The notes: generated by a model not told the origin, from the sequence alone. A stretch of DNA of 64,000 nt from Sarcophilus harrisii (GCA_048593225.1 CM109176.1:477371429-477435428), one strand, 5' to 3'. Shown: positions 7,591 to 60,658, counted from the first letter of the stretch. Numbers and translations are program-made.

Positions 7591-8641
7591 CTAAATAAAA
7601 ACAAACAGACAATGAAATCTCTCTATACACAAACTAATAGAATGAAATAAGAAGCCAATTCTCATACCATAATTTTCTTAGAAATCAATTTAAATAAATT
7701 CATCAGGAATAACAATGATTGAAAATCTAAAGGAAAACAATAAAAAGGGAAAAGGAAGGGACTTTAACTGATACCTAATCCCAAACTAGACTGCAAAACA
7801 TAATCATCAAAATAATTTGGTATTAGTTTAAACTAGAGACATTAATCACTGAAACACATTAAACACACAATTTGCAGGGGAAAAAAAAAACTAGTAGTCG
7901 TGTTCAATAAATCAAACGAGATAAGATTTCACGATTTAACAAAAACTGCTGGGAAATAATTGGGGAAAAATAGAGTTTAGATGATGTCCTAGAGAGATGT
8001 GTAAAAAGAGGAAAAGGACACACACATGTACACACACAAACACACACACAGACACTGCTTATAGAAGTTCCTTTTATAGTGAACTGGAAAGGGGTGCCCA
8101 TTAATTGGAGAACAGATAAAGACAGTATCACAATGTCTTAAGTGACAATATTACTCAGCTACAACACGAGGAATGACAAAAAAGACAGTTTTAGAGAAAG
8201 CTGGGAAAATTTTTAAGGACTGAAGTAGAATAAAATAAGCAGAACCAGGAGATTAATTTATACAACTAACTGTAAAGACAAACTTCAGAAGAATTAAAAA
8301 CTCTAATCAATGCAATGATAAACCCAGATTTAGAGGCTCAGGGCAAACATAATTTGTTGATATGGCTAATGTGAGAATTTACTTTGCTGGACTATGAACT
8401 ATGTAACCACAGGTTAATAAGACCTATCTTTTTTTTTTTTCCCCCATGACCAGCAGGAAATGGAAAGAAAGAAATTAAATTGCATTAGTTCCAGAATATG
8501 GCAAGGAGGATTTGTTAAAGTGATGATAGTGGGAAAAGAAAGAAAGAAGTGGATGTTCAAGTACTATGAAAGCAGAATCCTCAGAACTTGGGAGCTGAAT
8601 GGCTAGAAATGATGAGAAAAGAGTCAAAAATAAAACAAGGA

Positions 8642-8826
8642 GAAAATATTTAAGAATGACCGTAGTGTTTACATGCCTAATTAGACACATCTCTTGCCCA
8701 TGCCTGTGCAGATTTTGGATATCAAAAAAAGCAGAAAATATTTAAGAATGACCGTAGTGTTTACATGCCTAATTAGACACATCTCTTGCCCATGCCTGTG
8801 CAGATTTTGGATATCAAAAAAAGCAG
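8642..8826. repeat. Tandem duplication, 2 x 92 bp, near-identical.
   Basis: gaaaatatttaagaatgaccgtagtgtttacatgcctaattagacacatctcttgcccatgcctgtgcagattttggatatcaaaaaaagca occurs twice back to back, with the second unit starting at 8734. It produces the twin ORFs 8475-8690 and 8681-8884. Confidence 0.85.
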
Positions 8827-11052
8827 AATAGAGAAAGACAGAAAAGCAGGTTATTGAAATCAAATTGTGTTTGTTCAAATTCAACAGTTCGCAGTGATAT
8901 GGACCTTGGGTAAGTTACTTACTTCTTTGAAGATGAACTTCTTTATTTATAAAATGGGAATAATATTTAAACAACTAATTTCACAGGACAATTTTTTGTA
9001 AACTCTAAATTGTTCAATAAAAGCTTTGAACAAAAAGGGGCACTTGAATTGATCCTTGAAGAATACTACAGATGATGTCAAAAGCTGGAAGATGAGGAAA
9101 GAGACAGAAAGGAAAGATGTAATATTGAGTGTTGTACAATAATTCATCTCAATGGAGAATATACAAAGGGAGGACATATTAAATTGGAATGAAGTTTTGA
9201 AACCTAAATGTCTCTCAGAAGACTACTTCACCTTCTACTATGCTGTGAAAATACGCTCATTCACTTCGAGTTCCCTCTTCACAGTTTTAAAAACCTCAAC
9301 ATCAAATCCACTTTTCTTCTTCATTCCAGTCTCTGAGCTGGCCCTTTTCTTTGTCAACACCAACTTCTCCACACCACCCCTTGCCATTCTCTCCGTGACC
9401 TTGCTCTGTCAAATCACCTATTCTCTTTCACCTTCAATCTCTTCTTATTCACTGGCTTCTTCCCTGTAACAAATAAATGCAGCTTTAAGAACCCTTTACT
9501 TTGAGCCTTAGCCCCCTGAAACTAATATACTATTCCCTTTTAATCTGTCACATTCATTGCCTTCACTTCTTTACCACCCACTCATTTTCCATTTTGTAAT
9601 TTGGCTTCCAATTCCATAAGACAGCTGCAACTGGTTTATTCTGAGATGATCAATGATATCTTAATGTCTACCACCAATAACCTTTTCTAATAAACAAAAG
9701 CCTTCGTCCTTCTTGACTTTTCTTCAGCTTTTGACACTACTGACCAGTTATCTTCTCTCTTCCTTATCTTACTGGTTCTTCTCATTTTCCTATATTCTAC
9801 CACCAAGTATAACTGTCTTTGGCTTCTATACAATCAGTAAACATAACCTAAAGCAAGACTGCCAAATCTACATATTTAGTCCTCATCTTTTTCTTGAATT
9901 CAAGCTCTGGAAAATGAAGGAACTGATATACTACTGGCCCAGAATTAGGAAGACATAAATTCAAATTCTGCCTCAGACATTCACTAACTGTGTGACTTTG
10001 ATCAGAATATTTACTGACTTTTTCAGTTTCCCCAACTGTAAAATGAGGATCATAACAGCATTTACCTACTAAGGTTGTGGTGAAGATCAAATATGATAAT
10101 ATTTGTAAAGTGATTAACATAGTGACTGGAATATAGTAGACAATCCCTTCCTCCTTCCTTCTCCACATCTATCATTTCTATCATCTTACAAGCATCTCAA
10201 TCTCAATACATTCAAAATAGATGATCTTTAACCCTAAATTTATCCCTCATTTTCCCTTGTTTTGTTGAGAGGACCAACGTCTTTCTAATCATCCAGATTT
10301 ACAAGTTAGCAGTTAAAATTTTAACTTCTGTATCTCCCTAGTCAAATACAACATCATCAATATTAAAGTCTTTTAATTCAACCTATAAATATGTTTCCTC
10401 ACTCCTCTCATAGAAAACTACTTCATTCATCTCATCTCACTAACTGTGGTGAGCCTTCTAACTGTGCTTTCTCCCATACATTCTTTACAATATCTTCTTT
10501 TACACAGTGGTTAAAACAATTCTTTGAAAGTAAAGTTCTAACTATATTATTCCACTGCTCAAGAAATTGCAATGGCTCTCTAGTGCTTTGAGAAGAAAAT
10601 AAAATCTATTTTGTTTTGATTGTTAAAGCCCTTCATAATCTAGATATAGCCTGCTTTTACTTCCCTCTTAGCATAGGAGAGTGAGGAGGGAGAAAGAAAA
10701 ATGAGGTCCTAGAATTAAAAGACCCAATTTCAATCCTACCTCTGATATTATCATGGTCACATAATTTTAAAGGCCCCTTCTAGCTTTACACTCTTAGTAA
10801 AGATTAATTGTATTCAAACTGTTACTTTCACCCAGTTTAATTCAACTGGAATTTCAATATTGTAAAATATAACAAAAGTAATTTCCAACCTACTAGAACA
10901 GGAAACAAAAAAATTCATCTCCCAAGAAACCTTCCACTTAATGTAAAGTAAATCTACTTTTATATTTGTATAAAACACTTCAAATGTCCATTGCTCTTCA
11001 ATATTTAGACTTGTATTGTCGAACCAGTTTAATAGTTTTACATACATATATA

Positions 11053-19795: not shown

Positions 19796-20163
19796 TATAG
19801 AAAAAAAGTTCATTTTAATTTGTCAGTTCTTTCTCTGAGGTAAACAGCATTTTTCATCATATGTATTTTGTAATTTTCTTGGATCACTGTATCGTTGAGA
19901 ATAGGTAAATCATTCATAGTTGATCCTGGTACAATGTTACTATTGTGTACAATAAACATTCTGCTGGTTTTTCTCACTTCACTTTGCATCATCAATTCCA
20001 GTAAATCTTAACTTTTCAAAAAGCATCCTGGTTCATCATTTCTTATAGAACAGTATTCCATCACAATTATATACCACAACTTGTTCTGTCATTTCCCAAT
20101 TGATGGCTTCCCCTCAATTTCCAATTTTTTTGCCACCACCAAAAAAGAGCTGCTATAAATATT

Positions 20164-20172
20164 TTTTTTTTT

Positions 20173-20203
<31 letters not shown>
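20164..20203. repeat. T12 plus (TA)14. This is the poly(A)-tail microsatellite of the minus-strand L1 fragment.
   Basis: attttttttttttgtatatatatatatatatatatatatatatttctg. Confidence 0.85.
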
Positions 20204-20205
<2 letters not shown>

Positions 20206-21780
20206 CTGTTTCTTTGATCTCTTTGAGATAAAGATCTATTAGTGGTATTGCAGAAAAGATTTTAATAGCCCTTTGAGAATAGATCCAGATTATTCTCCAG
20301 AATGGTTGGACCAGTTCAAAACTCACCAAGAGTGCATTGGTGTTCCAATTTTTCAAATCCCCTCATATAATCTGATAGGTTTGAAGAAGCACTTTAGGGG
20401 TGTTTTAATTTGCATTTCTCTAACCAATTGTACTTTAGAACACTTTTTTCATGACTATAACTAGATTTGATTTCCTTCTTCTATAATTGCCTGCTCATAG
20501 CCTTTGGTCAATCAATTGGAGAATGACATATTTTTAATAAATTTGACCTAGTTCTCTTTATATTTAGAAATGAGATTTACTTTCCTTCTAATCTTGGCTG
20601 CATTGGTTTTGTTTGTACAAAACCTTTGCAATCTGACGTAATCAAAATTATGCACTATACATCCCTTAATGCTCTCTACTTCCTGTTTAATCATAAATTC
20701 TTCCCTTGCCCATATATCTGAAAGGCAAAATATTCCATGTTTCTTTAGTTTGCTTATATCGCATCTCCCTTTATATCTAAATCACTTACCTACTTTTACC
20801 TTATGGTATATAAGGTGTGTGATTAGCCTATACTTAAATTTCTGCCAAACTGCTTTCCAATTTTCTCAGAAATTTTTGTCAAATAACGATTTCTTTCCCC
20901 AACATCTTGCATCTTTGAGTTTATCAAACACTAGATTATTAAGGTCATTTGTTACCATGTATTGTATACCTAATCTATACAACTGATTCACTACTCTATT
21001 TCTTAGCCAATACCAGATTGTTTTGATGATTACTACTGTAATCTAGTTTGAAATCTGGTACTGCTAAACCATGCTAAACTTGTCATTTTTTTTTCCCCAT
21101 TAATGTCCTTTGATATTGTTGATCATTTGTTCTTCCAGGTGAATTTTGTCACAGTTTTTTCTAGTTCTATAATTTAATTTTATGATTTTTGTTGTTTCTG
21201 CTATTGATATGGTCAATTATGCTGATAGTTTTTCTAACACTAAATCATCTCTGCATTCCTGGTATAAATCTCACCTGGTCATGGTGTATGAACTTTGTAA
21301 TAATCTTTGTCAACTTCTTGTTAAGTTTTTTATTTAAAAGTTTTGCATTTATATTCATTAGGAAAATTGTTCTATAGTTTTATTCTGTTTTGCTTTTCCT
21401 GGTTTGGGGATCGGCACCTTATTTGTGTCATAAAAGAAATTTGGTAAGACTGCTTATTTTTCCAAATATTTTATATAGTAGTGAAATTACTACACTAATT
21501 AGGTGTTATTTTCTTCAGTATTTTTTCCTGTTTCCTTTAATAAGCCGTTGACTCTTTTCATGATTTTCTTGCATCACTCTCATTCCAATTGTTCCTCTAA
21601 GTTATTTGATTCTTAAAATTCTTTTTTAAGTTTTTCTGGAAATTTTTTTTACCAATTCACTTTTTCTTTGATGTTTTGTTTGTAGCTGTTCTGAATCCAT
21701 TTTCTTTCTCACATTTTGTTCACATTCTGATCTTCCTTATCACCATGGTAATTTTCTATGGTTAGGTTCTTTTTTTGTTT
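20165..21780 (-). mobile_element. 5'-truncated LINE-1 fragment on the minus strand; the plus strand shows the L1 antisense sequence. It starts with T12 plus (TA)n, which is the poly(A) tail seen in reverse, and runs through the ORF2 3' region.
   Basis: The plus strand carries hallmark antisense-L1 segments in the right order: ccagaatggttggaccagttcaaaactcaccaagagtgcattggtgttcc, then gttttaatttgcatttctctaacc, then ccaataccagattgttttgatgattactactgtaatctagtttgaaatctgg. Each is collinear with the well-known human L1 antisense blocks. Confidence 0.65.
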
Positions 21781-23386: not shown

Positions 23387-23541
23387 GTTTCTAAGTGACT
23401 TTTCAGCAGATCATACACCAATACATTATTACACTGCTTAGCAAAATGCAAAGCACTATTTTGATGTTTTGACAAAATATTACAATCTGCTCCACATTCA
23501 ATCACAAGTCTTACAATATCTGAGTTTCCTCTTTTACAGGC
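23387..23541 (-). CDS. MPHOSPH8: MPHOSPH8 exon 10, 155 nt, ending in phase 2, ankyrin repeats: ACKRGNSDIVRLVIECGADCNILSKHQNSALHFAKQCNNVLVYDLLKSHLE(T).
   Basis: Acceptor ttttcctgttacag|GCCTGTAAAAGAGG and donor GAAAC|gtaagtatc. Human MPP8 has ACKRGNSDIVRLVIECGADCNILSKHQNSALHFAKQSNNVLVYDLLKNHLET. Confidence 0.9.
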
Positions 23542-23743
23542 CTGTAACAGGAAAAAAAATTAAGACAAGTAATTATATAAAGTCTAAGGAGTCTGTGTGT
23601 ATGTGTGTAGGTGTGTGTATGAAGATATTGAAACTTAACAGAAATTTCTTCAAGGGAAGAACAGGGTCTACTTGACTCTTCAAAATAGGTGGCCTTCAAA
23701 AGATATTTTTGTGATTGACAATAATGATAAAAATAATAAAAGA

Positions 23744-24412
23744 TGTTATGCCCAGAAATTGAAACAGGGTGCTAGGTCACTGGAATTGATAGAAACAATG
23801 CTTATGTACTTGGTTCACACCTTTGGAGTTTACCCCTTTGGGAGAGTTCACACATTAGCTCACACTTTAGAGTTCACACCTTCAAGAAATTATATATTAG
23901 GAGCTCTCACAAGTCAACTAGAGACTTTTGGGAGATTCACAAGTCAGGATTCAGTAGAGGAGATTCACAAGTCACAGTTCCCACAAGCCACTCTCTTGGA
24001 GTAGTCAGATCCATTCGATATTCCACCACTGTGTTGGCTGGAGGCTTTGAATTCAGAGGGAGCTGGAGGCTGAAGCTGGCAGAGGCAAAGGACTATCAAC
24101 AAGAGCTCTCCGAACCAAGGAAAGCTAAGAGGGCTATTTTGGAAGAGACAATAAATGATTGGACTTTAACTCCTGGCTGCATTTAAGGTAATTATTACAC
24201 TGAACTGAAACTAAGGCTGCCTCTAGAAGCCCCCCAAGAAATCTGCTCCCAGAGAATATAATTTAGAGAACATTACATTTTGGCGCCCCATATTGGGATA
24301 ATCACCTCTCCCAAAGGTGTGAACTCCAAAGGTGTGAACCAAGTACATAAGCACTGTTTCTATCAATTCCAGTGACCTTAGCACCCTGTTTCAAGTTCTG
24401 GCCCATAACAAA
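23744..24412. mobile_element. Inverted-repeat structure. Two ~110 bp arms (about 23744-23855 and 24301-24412, roughly 95% identical in inverted orientation) flank a ~450 bp core of short direct repeats (ttcacac and gattcacaagtca units). It is a candidate MITE or non-autonomous DNA transposon, or a long hairpin, in intron 9.
   Basis: The reverse complement of 24311-24412 reads ctttttgttatgggccagaacttgaaacagggtgctaaggtcactggaattgatagaaacagtgcttatgtacttggttcacacctttggag. The plus strand at 23744 onward reads gatgttatgcccagaaattgaaacagggtgctaggtcactggaattgatagaaacaatgcttatgtacttggttcacacctttggag. Confidence 0.6.
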
Positions 24413-26419
24413 AAGCTAGCATTTATAGTACTTTAAGTTTTGTAATACTTTACAAATATCTCATTTTGTCCTTGCTAAATAATCTTTTAAGTAAGTGCTA
24501 TTATTATCTTCATTTTACAGATAAGGAAACTAAGGCAGACAGAAGTGATTTGGCCAGCATCACAAAACTTAAGTATCTCAAGGTAGATCAGAACTGACCC
24601 AAGATCCAGCATTCCATTATGCTAAAAAGCTACCAAATGCCAGGGCTTCTTGGGAAACACTCAAGAGATTTTCATTCTACTAGACTCTACTGTTTTTAAG
24701 ATCACCCACATGGTTGTTAAAAGAGCCAATCCTTGACAAAAGCATTCTTGTTAGACTAGTTGTCACACTTCTTTGACTATACTATGTGGAATCAAAAAAT
24801 AATTTCATATTTATTTCAGCAGTGATTTACTCTGCCATGTACCAACCTAAATATAGTAAATCTCAGGCAGCATTGTAAAAGATGGAAAAATTCGATCAAG
24901 ACAGTTTCATTGCATCTAGAACAGAACACAGATAACAAGGTAAATTTCTTTCTTGTAAAAGAATTTCAGGCTACAACTATCTGTGTCTTTATTCATGTTA
25001 TTTATCTTACTCATCCTTCTCCAGTATACTTTTAGAGGGGTAATTTTTTCCTATCAGATAGAATATTTGCACAGCTGAATAAAATATTTTACTTAGTGAG
25101 AAGACATGAGTCTAAACCTACCTTTGATCCTAAGAAGCCGTATATACTTAGTTAAATCTTCTGTGGTCCTTGGTTTCCTCATTTGAAAAATATAACAGTA
25201 GACTACTCATTATTTGCTTTCTAGTATATTTTGAGTTCAAAAATTATATGAACAACCTAACCAAACTTTGAAAGTAAATGAAATATTGATCTTTATTGAA
25301 CTAGGCACTTAATCAACAAAAACCAATTTGTTTCAAGTGAAAATAAGTTTTACTAATTTGGGGCACGTATAATTAAGACCCTTCCTGTATTTATGGTAAC
25401 CTATATTTATCTTCGTATAGCCTTCCTGTTTATAAAACATAAAAAAATAATTAATGGCAAAAAATGAGAACAAGAGGTAAGAGAATTGTTTGAAATTAAA
25501 AGCTGATAATAAAGCATCCTTGAAGATGACAATATAAAAGTCCAGCTACTTATTAAAAATACTGTTCCTAGGTTATCCTTTTCCTAAGTAGGCACATAAT
25601 CATGGCTTTTATGGTATCTATCCTCACAGCTAGTCTGTTGCTTTTCTCTTATATGGAAAACATTTTTGAAGTATCACAGAATAACATCAAAGAACGAACA
25701 AAGAGTATATCAAAGAGTATAAAAAAACATTTAAAAAGAAAATCCATCTGGATAAGATGCCCTGTAATGTATGTATATTAAATAAGGTTTGTATTTAGAT
25801 GATCTTCTCTACATTTGCCCACAGTAACATACATGTACTATCTAAATCTATATATATATATATATATATATATAGATAGATAGATAGATTCTACTTAATT
25901 TATAATAACTTAGTAACATCTGAAGAACTAGTATAATCAAAAGAACCCTGGGGGTTTGGAGTCAGAAGACCTCTTTAAAATCTCCTTTGGTGATTTTGGG
26001 CAAATCATAAGTAAAAGGGAATGGACTTTTGCAGGTCTGTTACACTGTTTCTAAAGCCTATGATCTTATAACGAAATAAATTAGTAAGAGATGAATCATA
26101 ATTGTCATGATTCACATGGAGTTGTTTTTAAAAAGCATTTAGTGATGGAAGTATTCATAGATTTTTCTCTTGCTGAGAGTTTATTATAATCTGCATGCTT
26201 ATAGATTCTTAATATTTATAAATGTCATCTACTTTAGAATATATTAATAGTCATCTGAAAAATACAAAGCTCAATACTGATTCACAGACCACTACATAGC
26301 ATTTCCAATCCCTCTGTTTTTGTCCGCTTGCATTTTTGACTTCCTTCACAGGTTAACTGTTATTATTTCAAAGTCCAATTCTTCTTGTGCAGCAAAATAA
26401 CTATGGCTATGTATACATG

Positions 26420-36284: not shown

Positions 36285-37189
36285 CTAACAATGAAAGCAT
36301 GATACAAATGAATTAGAAACTGACAATATTTATTAAACAAGGTCCTTTAAACAGTGTAAAACATGGCTCCAAGGCCAAGGAGTCTATTTTCCTATGATAA
36401 AATTACAAAATCTTATAATTTTTTTCCTTATATCCCTACAACTCTGGACTATCCTAACATTGTTTATAGGTAAAAAAGACATACTCATAACATTAAATAA
36501 CAATGTTTAATCACATATCCCATCAGATTACAAAGATGGGAAAACAATGTAGGGATTCCAGCAAAACAGGAATGCACTAAAAGCAGTTGGTTTTCATAAT
36601 CAATACTTTTTCTGCTTTTTTTCTGTATGAAAAAATGTTTATCAGTGTTTATTGACAATAAGAAAAGTGAAATATTTTCAAAAATACAACCATGCTAATT
36701 TCCTGCTATTAGAGTGAGAAATTATTCAGAACTGCTGAAGAAAAGTTAGAATTTAATTTATATGCTGACCTAGACATTTCACTATTACTGCTCTACACCT
36801 AAAGATAGTTATAGACAGTAGGAAAAAATCCATATGTAAAAAACTATTCATAGCAGAGTTACTTGTGATAAGAAAAAATTTGGAAAGAAATAATGTGCCC
36901 AACAACTGAAGAATTGGATAAGTCAAATCATGATATATATAAATGTACAAGAATATTATCACATCCTAATTTACAAGCATGAAGAATTCAGAAAACATGT
37001 GAATGCTATTACATCAAAGTTGAAGGACATATCCCTTTCTGTTAATAAAGGAACTGGTTTTCAGTAAATGAACTTTGCAGGTGTGTGTTTGGATGTTTAT
37101 TAATAATAGCATTTATATATCCCTTAAAAGCTTGCCAAATGCTTTACAACTATTTCTTCATTTTATCTTCTTCATAATTCTGGGAAGTA

Positions 37190-37335
37190 AGTACTATTAT
37201 TATCCCCATTTTACAGGAAACTGAGGCAAATAGAGATTCAGTGACTTGCTCAGTCATATAGTTAGTAATTGTCGGAGGCCAGATATGAACTAAGTACTTC
37301 TGATTGGAGAGCCAGCGCTTTATTCACTACACCAT
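37190..37335 (-). mobile_element. tRNA-derived SINE, reverse orientation.
   Basis: ccccattttacaggaaactgaggcaaatagagattcagtgacttgctcagtcatatagttagtaattgtcggaggccagatatgaactaagtacttctgattggagagccagcgctttattcactacaccatctcac. Confidence 0.6.
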
Positions 37336-47400: not shown

Positions 47401-47916
47401 GATCAATCTTACAGGGGATATAGTAAAATTGGAATACTAATACACTACTGGTGAAATTATGAACTGATCCAATCATTCTGAGGCCAATGGAACTATAAGA
47501 GCTATAAAAACGTTTATACTGTTTGATCCAACAATACAATTACTAAAAAGAGATCAAAGAGACCAAAAAAGGGGGAAAAGACCTAGTTGTACAAAAATAT
47601 TTATAGCAGTTCTTCTTGTGGTGGCAAAGAACGGGAAATTGAGGGAATGCCCATCAACTGGAGAATGACTGAATAAGTTGTAATATATGATGGTAATGGA
47701 ATGATACTGTGCTGTAAGAAATGACAAAAATAAAAGATTATTTCAAAAAAGCCTGGAAAGAACTGATGAAAAAATGGAGTGAATAGAATCAGAATGTTTG
47801 TACATAGTAAAAGCAATACTGTATCACACTTAACTGTGAATTACTTAGCTATTCTCAGCAATACAATGATCCAAGACAAATTCAAAAGACTCATGATGAA
47901 AAATGCTATCCACTAT

Positions 47917-58885: not shown

Positions 58886-60351
58886 CATACTCTACTTTGT
58901 TAATTTTCTTAAGACTTTAGGCATTCATGTATATAAGTAGCAACAGAAATAAATTTATAAATATTGAGTGAATTCCCTATATTTTCTGTGATACAGATCA
59001 ATATTATCAACAAACACATTGTATATCCCCTATATTTAAGGTATTACATACATATATGCACAGATAATATAAAGAATTTTAAAACACTTTACTGGAGCCA
59101 ACACAATCAAGGAAGGCAGCATTTAATAGAATTAAATGCCTGTTTAGAAAAATCCTCTAAGAATTGGAAGGAGGGGAAGGGGAGAGACGATCATGATCGG
59201 CTGGGGCTATTCTATCATTTCAAACTAAAGATTAAGAGTCTATTCTTACCTTTTAATAATAATTTACTTATACAGCCTTTTGATTTATACCCTTAATGCT
59301 CTGTGATTTCCTCAAAATGTTTAGACGGTCCCAATCCATGCCATACTTTCTAGACAAGTACTACTGTCATCTTCTTCCACTCCTCATCATATACTATTTT
59401 AAAAATAAAAACATCTTCTTATCCTCAAGAGTCATTCTTAACATTCAAAGTCCTCATCCAGAAATGACTTTACAAGTTAACTTATACTAACCCCACCATC
59501 ATCACCACAGACTCCTCCTTTGCCTTCCTATTTCCAATTCATTCCATCGTTAAGTGAAAAGATCTTCAAACTTTAGTAAAATATCACCTCTCCCACTCCA
59601 CCTGCCAAAGGCTCCAGAGGCTTCTCCCTGGCGCTTTATATATTTCTGACTGCCTACACCTGTCCCAACCATGCACCAATGCACCTTTACAATGATGTCT
59701 TCACTACAAACTCCATTCCCACTTCAGTGACTCATGTGAACTCTCGACAATCTTTTATGAAGCACTTACTATGAGCCGAGCACTGGGTCTACATATCTCC
59801 TTTCCTCCCCCCCCCCCAAAAAAAAAAAAAAGGAAATAGTTCCAGCTCTCACAGTCGAATGTCCCATGCCAGAAATTACCTCAGCCCTCTGCTGGACAAT
59901 CGGCTCTGGCCAGAGACTAAGTCCACATAGAAAAAGCGCATCAGTGCTATCCCAGATCCGGCCACTCCAGTAATTTCCCACTTCCACGCCCCCAATACTT
60001 TGACAGGGTCGTGCCAACGTCAGCCCCTGCAAGGTGGGTTAAGAGGGTGGACGGAGATGGGCGTCGCCAGGACCGAGGTAGGGGGTGAAAGGAGGCCGGG
60101 CTGGCCGGACCCTCTAGGCCTGAGCCCGAGGAGCGCCGCCCCCATCCCGGGGAGGCTGGGCCCTAGCGGGGGGTCGAGGCCCAGCGGCTGCCGTGGCCGC
60201 CCCGGGGGAGCCCGAGAGGTTAGAAAACAAGAGCCAGCTCTTTTCTCAAGTCCACAAAAGGGAAGGAGCTTGGCTCGCCTGGCCTACCGCCGTTACAAAG
60301 GTCCCGCAGGCTCCAGGGTCCCTCTCCGCCCCACGCCCCTCACTCACTCAC

Positions 60352-60576
60352 CGCTTCGGTCTTCACGTCCAGGATCTTCTCCACCTCGAACACATCTTCT
60401 TCGTCTTCCTCGCTCTCCCCCACAGTCTCGCCCGCCCGCCCGCCGTCGTCCTTCTCCAGGCCTCCCGCTTCTTCTCCTACTCCTCCTGACGCATCCTCGC
60501 TACAGCTATCCGAACCTGAAGCGGCGGCGGCAGCTACACTGACAGCGCCCCCGCCCGCACTAGCCAGAGCCGCCAT
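60352..60576 (-). CDS. MPHOSPH8: MPHOSPH8 coding exon 1. It starts with ATG and ends in phase 0. It encodes MAALASAGGG...ESEEDEEDVFEVEKILDVKTEA, the acidic N-terminus and the first chromodomain strand.
   Basis: Matches the ATG of the minus-strand ORF 60340..60576, in a catcATGG Kozak context. The donor is GAAGCG|gtgagtgagtg at 60351-60350. Eutherian MPP8 has EDVFEVEKILDMKTEG here. Confidence 0.9.
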
Positions 60577-60658
60577 GATGTAGGAATTTCAAACCGACTG
60601 AGGAAAAGTGGCTGCGACACACGCCTCTCCGGGGTGTCTCGCGGGGCAGGGGCCGTCA

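Follow-up and report, generated by a model that had tools for sequence, protein, structure and literature searches.

The integrase-site consensus of LTRs is TGTTRNR ... [quoted passage not shown] In HIV-1, defective proviruses with inversions are documented (PMC9278108). Ginger transposons also possess TGTNR termini, together with TIRs of 40-270 bp and a 4-bp duplication that is CCGG/CCGT in Ginger1 and lies within RTATAY in Ginger2. They are reported from invertebrates and protists, and for vertebrates including mammals only domesticated Gin genes are described (PMC2836005). The element described here occupies positions 23744-24410 of a stretch of DNA from Sarcophilus harrisii. It is probably a single dead retroviral LTR with a tRNA primer site, the right end of which is formed by its own first 103 bases in inverted orientation.

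The window, i.e. the whole stretch of 64,000 nucleotides that was analyzed, contains the MPHOSPH8 gene on the minus strand. MPHOSPH8 is a subunit of the HUSH retroelement-silencing complex. The exons were located as follows (exons 1-9 from the exon map; exon 10 from its splice sites and translation).

About 60.6-60.36 kb, minus strand: MPHOSPH8 exon 1
53454-53278, minus strand: MPHOSPH8 exon 2
44492-43626, minus strand: MPHOSPH8 exon 3
About 36.28 kb, minus strand: MPHOSPH8 exon 4
About 35.46 kb, minus strand: MPHOSPH8 exon 5
About 33.73 kb, minus strand: MPHOSPH8 exon 6
About 33.51 kb, minus strand: MPHOSPH8 exon 7
About 30.83 kb, minus strand: MPHOSPH8 exon 8
About 30.22-30.135 kb, minus strand: MPHOSPH8 exon 9
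23387-23541, minus strand: MPHOSPH8 coding exon 10 (ankyrin repeat), with a polypyrimidine-AG acceptor and a GTAAGT donor

The peptide encoded by exon 10 coincides with human MPHOSPH8 (PDB 8qfb_B) in 49/51 residues. The element lies in intron 9, 203 nt upstream (in the direction of the transcript) of the exon 10 acceptor at 23541. The earlier note, made from the sequence of the window, had placed it in intron 9 about 200 nt upstream of exon 10, and the independent exon map, where this exon is the tenth coding one, is in full agreement with that position. The interval between exon and element harbors an imperfect (GT)n at 23590-23625, which reads (AC)n in the transcript and is situated 50-85 nt ahead of the acceptor. 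Compared with MPHOSPH8 of placentals and of the platypus, the exon 3 peptide shows 57-60% identity (placentals share 72-76% among themselves); with the Logan-derived P0003, P0004 and P0007, taken as sauropsid, it shows 51-53%, and the protein search with this exon gave nothing closer than 60% identity. Such distances would place the host outside placentals and monotremes alike, which fits a marsupial best. The exon 1 peptide, running from MAALASAGGG... to ...EDVFEVEKILDVKTE, is found within the GC-rich region 60000-60650, presumed to be the CpG-island promoter of MPHOSPH8.

Repeat matches inside the window are few, only 8 pairs being found by self-BLAST of the 64 kb. One of them is a second inverted pair, 11816-12050/13505-14025, with arms of ~220 bp that are 70-85% identical, 1.5-2 kb apart and older; these look like two opposite copies of an old interspersed repeat, which would pair in the pre-mRNA too. 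A direct repeat of a 105-bp segment with 98% identity and a 92-bp offset (8632-8828) looks like a young tandem duplication. The inverted match of 19846-20363 to 47413-47907 (531 bp, 69% identity) probably represents fragments of one old LINE-like repeat. BLASTN with the Alu consensus gave 0 matches in the 64-kb window, as expected of a host that is not a primate.

The features of the element and of its immediate flanks are given below in the order of their left ends.

23738-23743, no strand assigned: AAAAGA, left-flank hexamer, candidate 6-bp target-site duplication, 5/6 to AAAAGC
23744-23846, plus strand: left arm, putative U3 5' end with the integrase-recognition end TGTTATG (23744-23750); pairs with the reverse complement of 24306-24410
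23744-24277, plus strand (antisense to MPHOSPH8): putative LTR of 534 bp with a U3-R-U5 layout, TGTTATG start, CATTACA end, TATATA and AATAAA
23811-23885, plus strand: about five tandem units of 12-15 nt, GTTCACAC(C)TTTGG-like (repeat families D2 and D4, inverted pairs I4 and I5)
23891-23896, plus strand: TATATA, candidate TATA box, the sole TATA[AT]A in the element by regex scan
23931-23974, plus strand: GGAGATTCACAAGTCA, two exact copies 28 nt apart (repeat family D1)
24150-24155, plus strand: AATAAA, candidate LTR polyadenylation signal, the only one in a regex scan of both strands
24271-24277, plus strand: CATTACA, putative internal LTR 3' end, 6/7 to YNYAACA and 6/7 to the reverse complement of the 5' end
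24281-24298, plus strand: TGGCGCCCCATATTGGGA, primer-binding-site-like 18-mer, preceded by TTT (24278-24280) and 3 nt past CATTACA
24299-24305, plus strand: TAATCAC, 7-nt junction between TGGCGCCCCATATTGGGA and the arm homology, filler or first leader bases
24306-24410, minus strand: right arm, putative LTR bases 1-103 inverted, with CATAACA (7/7 to YNYAACA) at the host junction
24411-24416, no strand assigned: AAAAGC, right-flank hexamer, candidate target-site duplication, 5/6 to AAAAGA
24414-24640, minus strand: MIR-like SINE adjoining the right end of the insertion, 74% similar to another MIR-like fragment at 37138-37234

The borders of the element (667 bp) were defined by repeat search and pairwise alignment. 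Its left arm of 103 bp (23744-23846) and right arm of 105 bp (24306-24410) are separated by a loop of 459 nt and agree in 98/105 aligned columns (93%, or 95% when the two 1-nt indels are ignored), the differences being 5 substitutions and these two indels. TGTTATG starts each arm, and GGTCACTGGAATTGATAGAAACA is common to both. Among inverted pairs spaced within 3 kb, none in the 64-kb window is longer or better. Neither the arms nor the core recur elsewhere in the 64 kb by BLASTN at word size 9, self-BLAST or nhmmer, the two arms being the only matches. An assembly artefact originating from a palindromic read is ruled out by the 7/105 columns at which the arms differ.

Most of what the earlier note had said about this structure is reproduced by the alignment and the repeat searches: the common TGTTATG start, the internal sequence shared by the arms and the absence of a similar arrangement elsewhere in the window. 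The arms that it had given as roughly 95% identical at 23744-23855 and 24301-24412 were also recovered, but the true right end is 24410 and not 24412. Its description of the core as built from direct repeats holds only in part: the repeats are real but cover only ~130 bp (23811-23974), and the other ~330 bp are unique sequence. Tandem repeats were reported by TRF at 23843-23879 and 24311-24339. The inner edge of the left arm falls within the array of 12-15-nt units (23811-23885), and these GTTCACAC-type units resemble enhancer-like U3 repeats. A stop-free frame of 136 codons on the plus strand begins within the left arm and spans most of the putative LTR (23788-24186); it is without homologues in a set of 5.8 billion proteins and is probably due to chance.

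The part of the element from 23744 to 24277 has the landmarks of an LTR. Its GC content is 43% versus 35% in the flanks. The TGTTATG at 23744-23750 fits TGTTRNR exactly (7/7). The candidate TATA box precedes AATAAA on the same strand, as the order of an LTR requires, and no A[AT]TAAA was found by regex scan on the minus (gene-sense) strand of the element. Judged by the positions of TATA and AATAAA, R would be long (~255 nt), which counts against the LTR reading. A PBS should be complementary to the 3' 18 nt of a host tRNA and lie 1-4 nt past the LTR. The 8-mer TGGCGCCC that opens TGGCGCCCCATATTGGGA has a single occurrence on the two strands of the window (128 kb), with 0.06 expected, and the published PBS of tRNA-Lys1,2 and tRNA-Lys3 open with the same 8 nt (PMC1084362). 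Over the full 18-mer the match to known tRNA 3' ends is partial: 13/18 to the tRNA-Lys1,2 PBS and 12/18 to that of Met. No tRNA gene, sought in order to identify the primer, was found in the 64-kb window. The joint signature of LTR end and PBS 8-mer was defined as a CA-ending 7-mer that is complementary to the start at >=6/7 positions and is followed within 1-4 nt by a tRNA-type 8-mer; with a list of tRNA 3' ends, it appeared in 129 of 200,000 shuffles of the element interior (6.5e-4). The origin of TAATCAC in read-through into the tRNA T-loop was considered by reasoning on the sequence, which does not fit, and was rejected. Microhomology at the fold-back junction is at most 1 nt and is uninformative.

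The assignment to an LTR is the best reading of these landmarks; it rests on them and on their statistics, and not on homology. Exact 18-23-mers from the arms, the R region and the U5-PBS junction gave 0 matches in metagenome, prokaryotic genome and viral contig collections. A pseudo-protein of 684 aa, assembled from all stop-free six-frame pieces of the element, gave nothing at E <= 1e-3 in the 5.8-billion-protein set. The literature search by the sequence string of the element returned 0 papers.

The hexamers AAAAGA and AAAAGC flanking the element match at 5/6 positions. By chance, >=5/6 positions agree in 0.8% of placements drawn at random in the window, and in 2% given AAAAGA, so the flanks lend modest support to a 6-bp target duplication that encloses all 667 bp; LTR elements leave duplications of 4-6 bp. 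The candidate duplication has one mismatch and lies inside an A-rich tract, which counts against the LTR reading. The AAAAG-like duplication suspected in the earlier note reads more accurately as the pair AAAAGA/AAAAGC, with one mismatch and at a chance level of ~0.8-2%. A single insertion with a 6-bp duplication would imply the original site ...AATAATAAAAG(A/C)TAGCATTT... or ...AATAATAAAAG(A/C)TAGCATTTATAG.... The insertion site is the edge of a MIR-like SINE, only a few bases separating its start from the element's right border. The segment 24414-24640 contains ACAGATAAGGAAACTAAGGC, which we take to be the MIR core motif.

From the anatomy and the statistics observed we infer, with a confidence only somewhat above even, that the element is an aberrant product of reverse transcription, namely an LTR with its primer site to which another U3 end was added and which integrated once, and that it is not a DNA transposon. 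On the plus strand such a unit would consist of the 534-bp LTR, a 3-nt spacer, the 18-nt PBS, 7 junction bases and the inverted LTR bases 1-103. The LTR as read would comprise a U3 that bears the TATA box and the enhancer-like repeats, then a long R in which AATAAA lies, then U5. A reverse transcript that was still incomplete may have changed strand or folded back on its U3, copying this U3 through to its 5' end. Alternatively, two incomplete molecules may have been joined tail to tail, with integration by the U3 ends and joining of the inner ones. By either route the DNA would carry U3 integrase sites at its two ends, and integrase could insert it once with a 6-bp target duplication. The product would have no 3' R, PPT or coding sequence and could not replicate, i.e. 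it would be dead on arrival. Since the 3' R, the PPT and the genes needed for replication are missing, it should be single-copy in this form.

Several details point to an origin before integration. The unique part of the element stops 7 nt past the 18-nt PBS, where plus-strand strong-stop DNA ends. The right arm halts exactly at U3 base 1, and no copied left flank follows it; the template of the arm would therefore have ended at U3 base 1, as in unintegrated linear viral DNA. Together with the two intact integrase ends and the candidate flanking duplication, the strong-stop-like end and the halt of the arm suggest that the inverted U3 end was acquired by the DNA prior to its insertion. Two observations stand against the fold-back. 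A simple fold-back gives no specific reason to expect the 7 junction bases or the absence of clear microhomology. In addition, a hairpin product has one duplex end, and an extra step has to be assumed, either second-strand synthesis or a two-molecule event.

Two opposite, nearby insertions of one LTR family, followed by a deletion from just past the left PBS to about U3 base 104 of the inverted LTR, are an unlikely source of the same arrangement. LTR families are abundant in marsupial genomes, a 7% difference between the arms is also typical of two family members, and both arms end in natural LTR termini. This scenario requires two nearby events plus a deletion, and for a provirus of several kb we estimate that chance would put the left breakpoint no more than 7 nt from where the PBS ends in about 1 case in 1000. 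It also predicts no match between the outer flanks, whereas 5/6 is observed (p ~0.01-0.02).

The earlier note had interpreted the element as a MITE or non-autonomous DNA transposon, and this interpretation is not supported by the flanks, by the interior or by the copies found in the collections searched. A MITE-like cut-and-paste element with TIRs of ~105 bp would explain the long inverted ends, the small size (667 bp) and the absence of coding capacity, the open frames having no homologues. Its TGTNR ends would need an integrase-like (Ginger-type) transposase; the TGTTA ends do fit TGTNR, and ~105 bp is inside the 40-270-bp range of Ginger TIRs (PMC2836005). The flanks AAAAGA/AAAAGC show neither CCGG/CCGT nor the 4 bp duplicated within RTATAY that Ginger would leave. 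Ginger is the sole type of transposase that fits TGTNR ends, and no active Ginger transposon is described for mammals (PMC2836005). At the junctions ...AATAATAAAAGA / element / AAAAGCTAGC... there is neither TA nor TTAA, and the flanking 8-mers ATAAAAGA and AAAAGCTA do not match, i.e. there is no 8-bp duplication of the hAT type. None of the target duplications typical of TIR superfamilies (TA, TTAA, 3 bp TWA, 8 bp hAT, 9 bp Mutator) is thus seen. The landmarks lying on one strand, i.e. the TGTTRNR start, TATA, AATAAA, the ...ACA end and the PBS-like site 3 nt further on, with the signature of internal LTR end and PBS at 6.5e-4, are left unexplained by such a transposon. The element is single-copy in the 64 kb, and no second copy was found in any of the collections searched. 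Taken together, these observations make the cut-and-paste reading quite unlikely.

We consider it very doubtful that all 667 bp form an ordinary solo LTR of a family with natural inverted termini of ~100 bp and that CATTACA-TTT-TGGCGCCCC is a coincidence. The 7/7 consensus ends TGTTATG...CATAACA and the candidate flanking duplication (5/6) speak for such a solo LTR. The terminal inverted repeats of LTRs are normally conserved over only ~7 bp (PMC3601003), the coincidence of an internal end with a PBS has a frequency of ~6.5e-4, and U5 would have to span ~260 bp.

More speculatively, a lineage-specific family of hairpins with TGTTR ends may have been mobile as DNA in a marsupial within ~25 Myr (Ginger-like or mobilized by integrase), or the dsRNA may have been retained via MPHOSPH8 feedback. 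Such a history is highly improbable.

Whatever the origin of the element, its arms would pair in the MPHOSPH8 pre-mRNA and form an intronic dsRNA stem of ~105 bp that is removed together with the intron. The pre-mRNA strand of 23700-24450, the fold of which the earlier note had proposed as a check, is far more stable than its shuffles (-283 kcal/mol versus -195 +/- 8.6; z = -10.3). With nothing but a GAAA loop between them, the two arms reach -174 kcal/mol (z = -29), and folding as single-stranded DNA gives z = -13. The stem of about 100 bp that had been anticipated in the pre-mRNA near the exon 10 acceptor is accordingly seen in the predicted fold as a near-perfect one of ~105 bp at a distance of ~200 nt. 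By analogy with inverted Alu pairs, the predicted stem is a plausible ADAR substrate. Such a dsRNA site in the MPHOSPH8 intron could appear as a cluster of A-to-I editing in RNA-seq.

Nothing suggests selection on the hairpin: all seven differences between the arms disrupt pairing without a compensatory pattern, and Rfam gives no match to it. The search of the whole window against Rfam, miRNA precursors included, gave no match at the gathering score, and at E <= 1 only chance-level matches (E 0.2-1) appeared in 23550-24650. The least probable of the readings considered is that the hairpin, however it arose, is now functional as a source of small RNA or as a regulator of exon 10 splicing or MPHOSPH8 expression; the very stable predicted stem, its distance of 203 nt from the 3' splice site and the arms that are still 93% matched speak for it, and the lack of an Rfam family, including miRNA precursors, and the 5 substitutions and 2 indels, none of them compensatory, speak against it. 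That the arms are two insertions of a SINE or LINE, which the earlier note had named as the scenario refuting its own reading, was rejected.

If the element is an aberrant product of reverse transcription as proposed, the divergence of its arms can serve as a clock. It amounts to 5/103 (Jukes-Cantor distance ~0.05), which suggests an age of roughly 10-25 Myr at assumed rates of 1-2.2e-9 per site per year. The element is most likely neutral today. A probable reason why the insertion was tolerated is that the LTR is antisense to MPHOSPH8 and that the gene-sense strand carries no polyadenylation signal. If this reading is right, the locus preserves as a fossil in the germ line a rare case in which retroviral replication failed, a strong-stop-sized LTR with its PBS having acquired a second U3 end and still integrated, and integrase would have accepted a U3/U3 substrate in vivo. 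It would also caution against taking every long inverted repeat with TG...CA ends in a mammalian intron for a MITE. An LTR and PBS with an inverted U3 end is an unusual form of a very common element, which otherwise is an ordinary dead retroelement and probably neutral.

The element resembles solo LTRs and 5'-LTR remnants of endogenous retroviruses in its TGTTRNR/YNYAACA ends, in TATA and AATAAA on one strand and in the tandem repeats of U3. The tRNA-type PBS-like site 3 nt past the LTR, the candidate short flanking duplication and the antisense position in an intron are also in keeping with LTR remnants of this kind. Unlike a solo LTR, which has no PBS, and unlike a provirus, where the second LTR is direct, the element has the inverted 103-bp start of U3 as its right end, so that both outer ends are U3. 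With MITEs it shares the small size, the lack of coding sequence, the long terminal inverted repeats and the fold into a long hairpin; it differs from them by the absence of a target duplication of a superfamily type, by the absence of evidence for multiple copies and by its LTR-like interior. At the RNA level it is comparable to the inverted Alu pairs of primate introns, where inverted copies within ~0.5 kb form long dsRNA. Inverted Alu pairs are the classic substrate of A-to-I editing. They are extremely common and arise from two independent SINE insertions, whereas the present element is a single LTR-derived unit in a genome without Alu. With DIRS-like retrotransposons it has in common that a retroelement bears inverted and not direct terminal repeats. 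DIRS elements extend over several kb, code for a tyrosine recombinase and possess an internal complementary region, whereas a target duplication and a tRNA PBS are absent from them; neither the size nor the recombinase nor the internal complementary region is found in the element. In mechanism it may resemble the defective proviruses of HIV-1 with inversions or asymmetric LTRs, where products of template-switch errors in reverse transcription still integrated and for which the strong-stop DNA is the relevant intermediate (PMC9278108). These proviruses are somatic, several kb long and have U3 and U5 as outer ends, whereas the element described here appears to be a germ-line fossil of strong-stop size with an inverted piece of U3.
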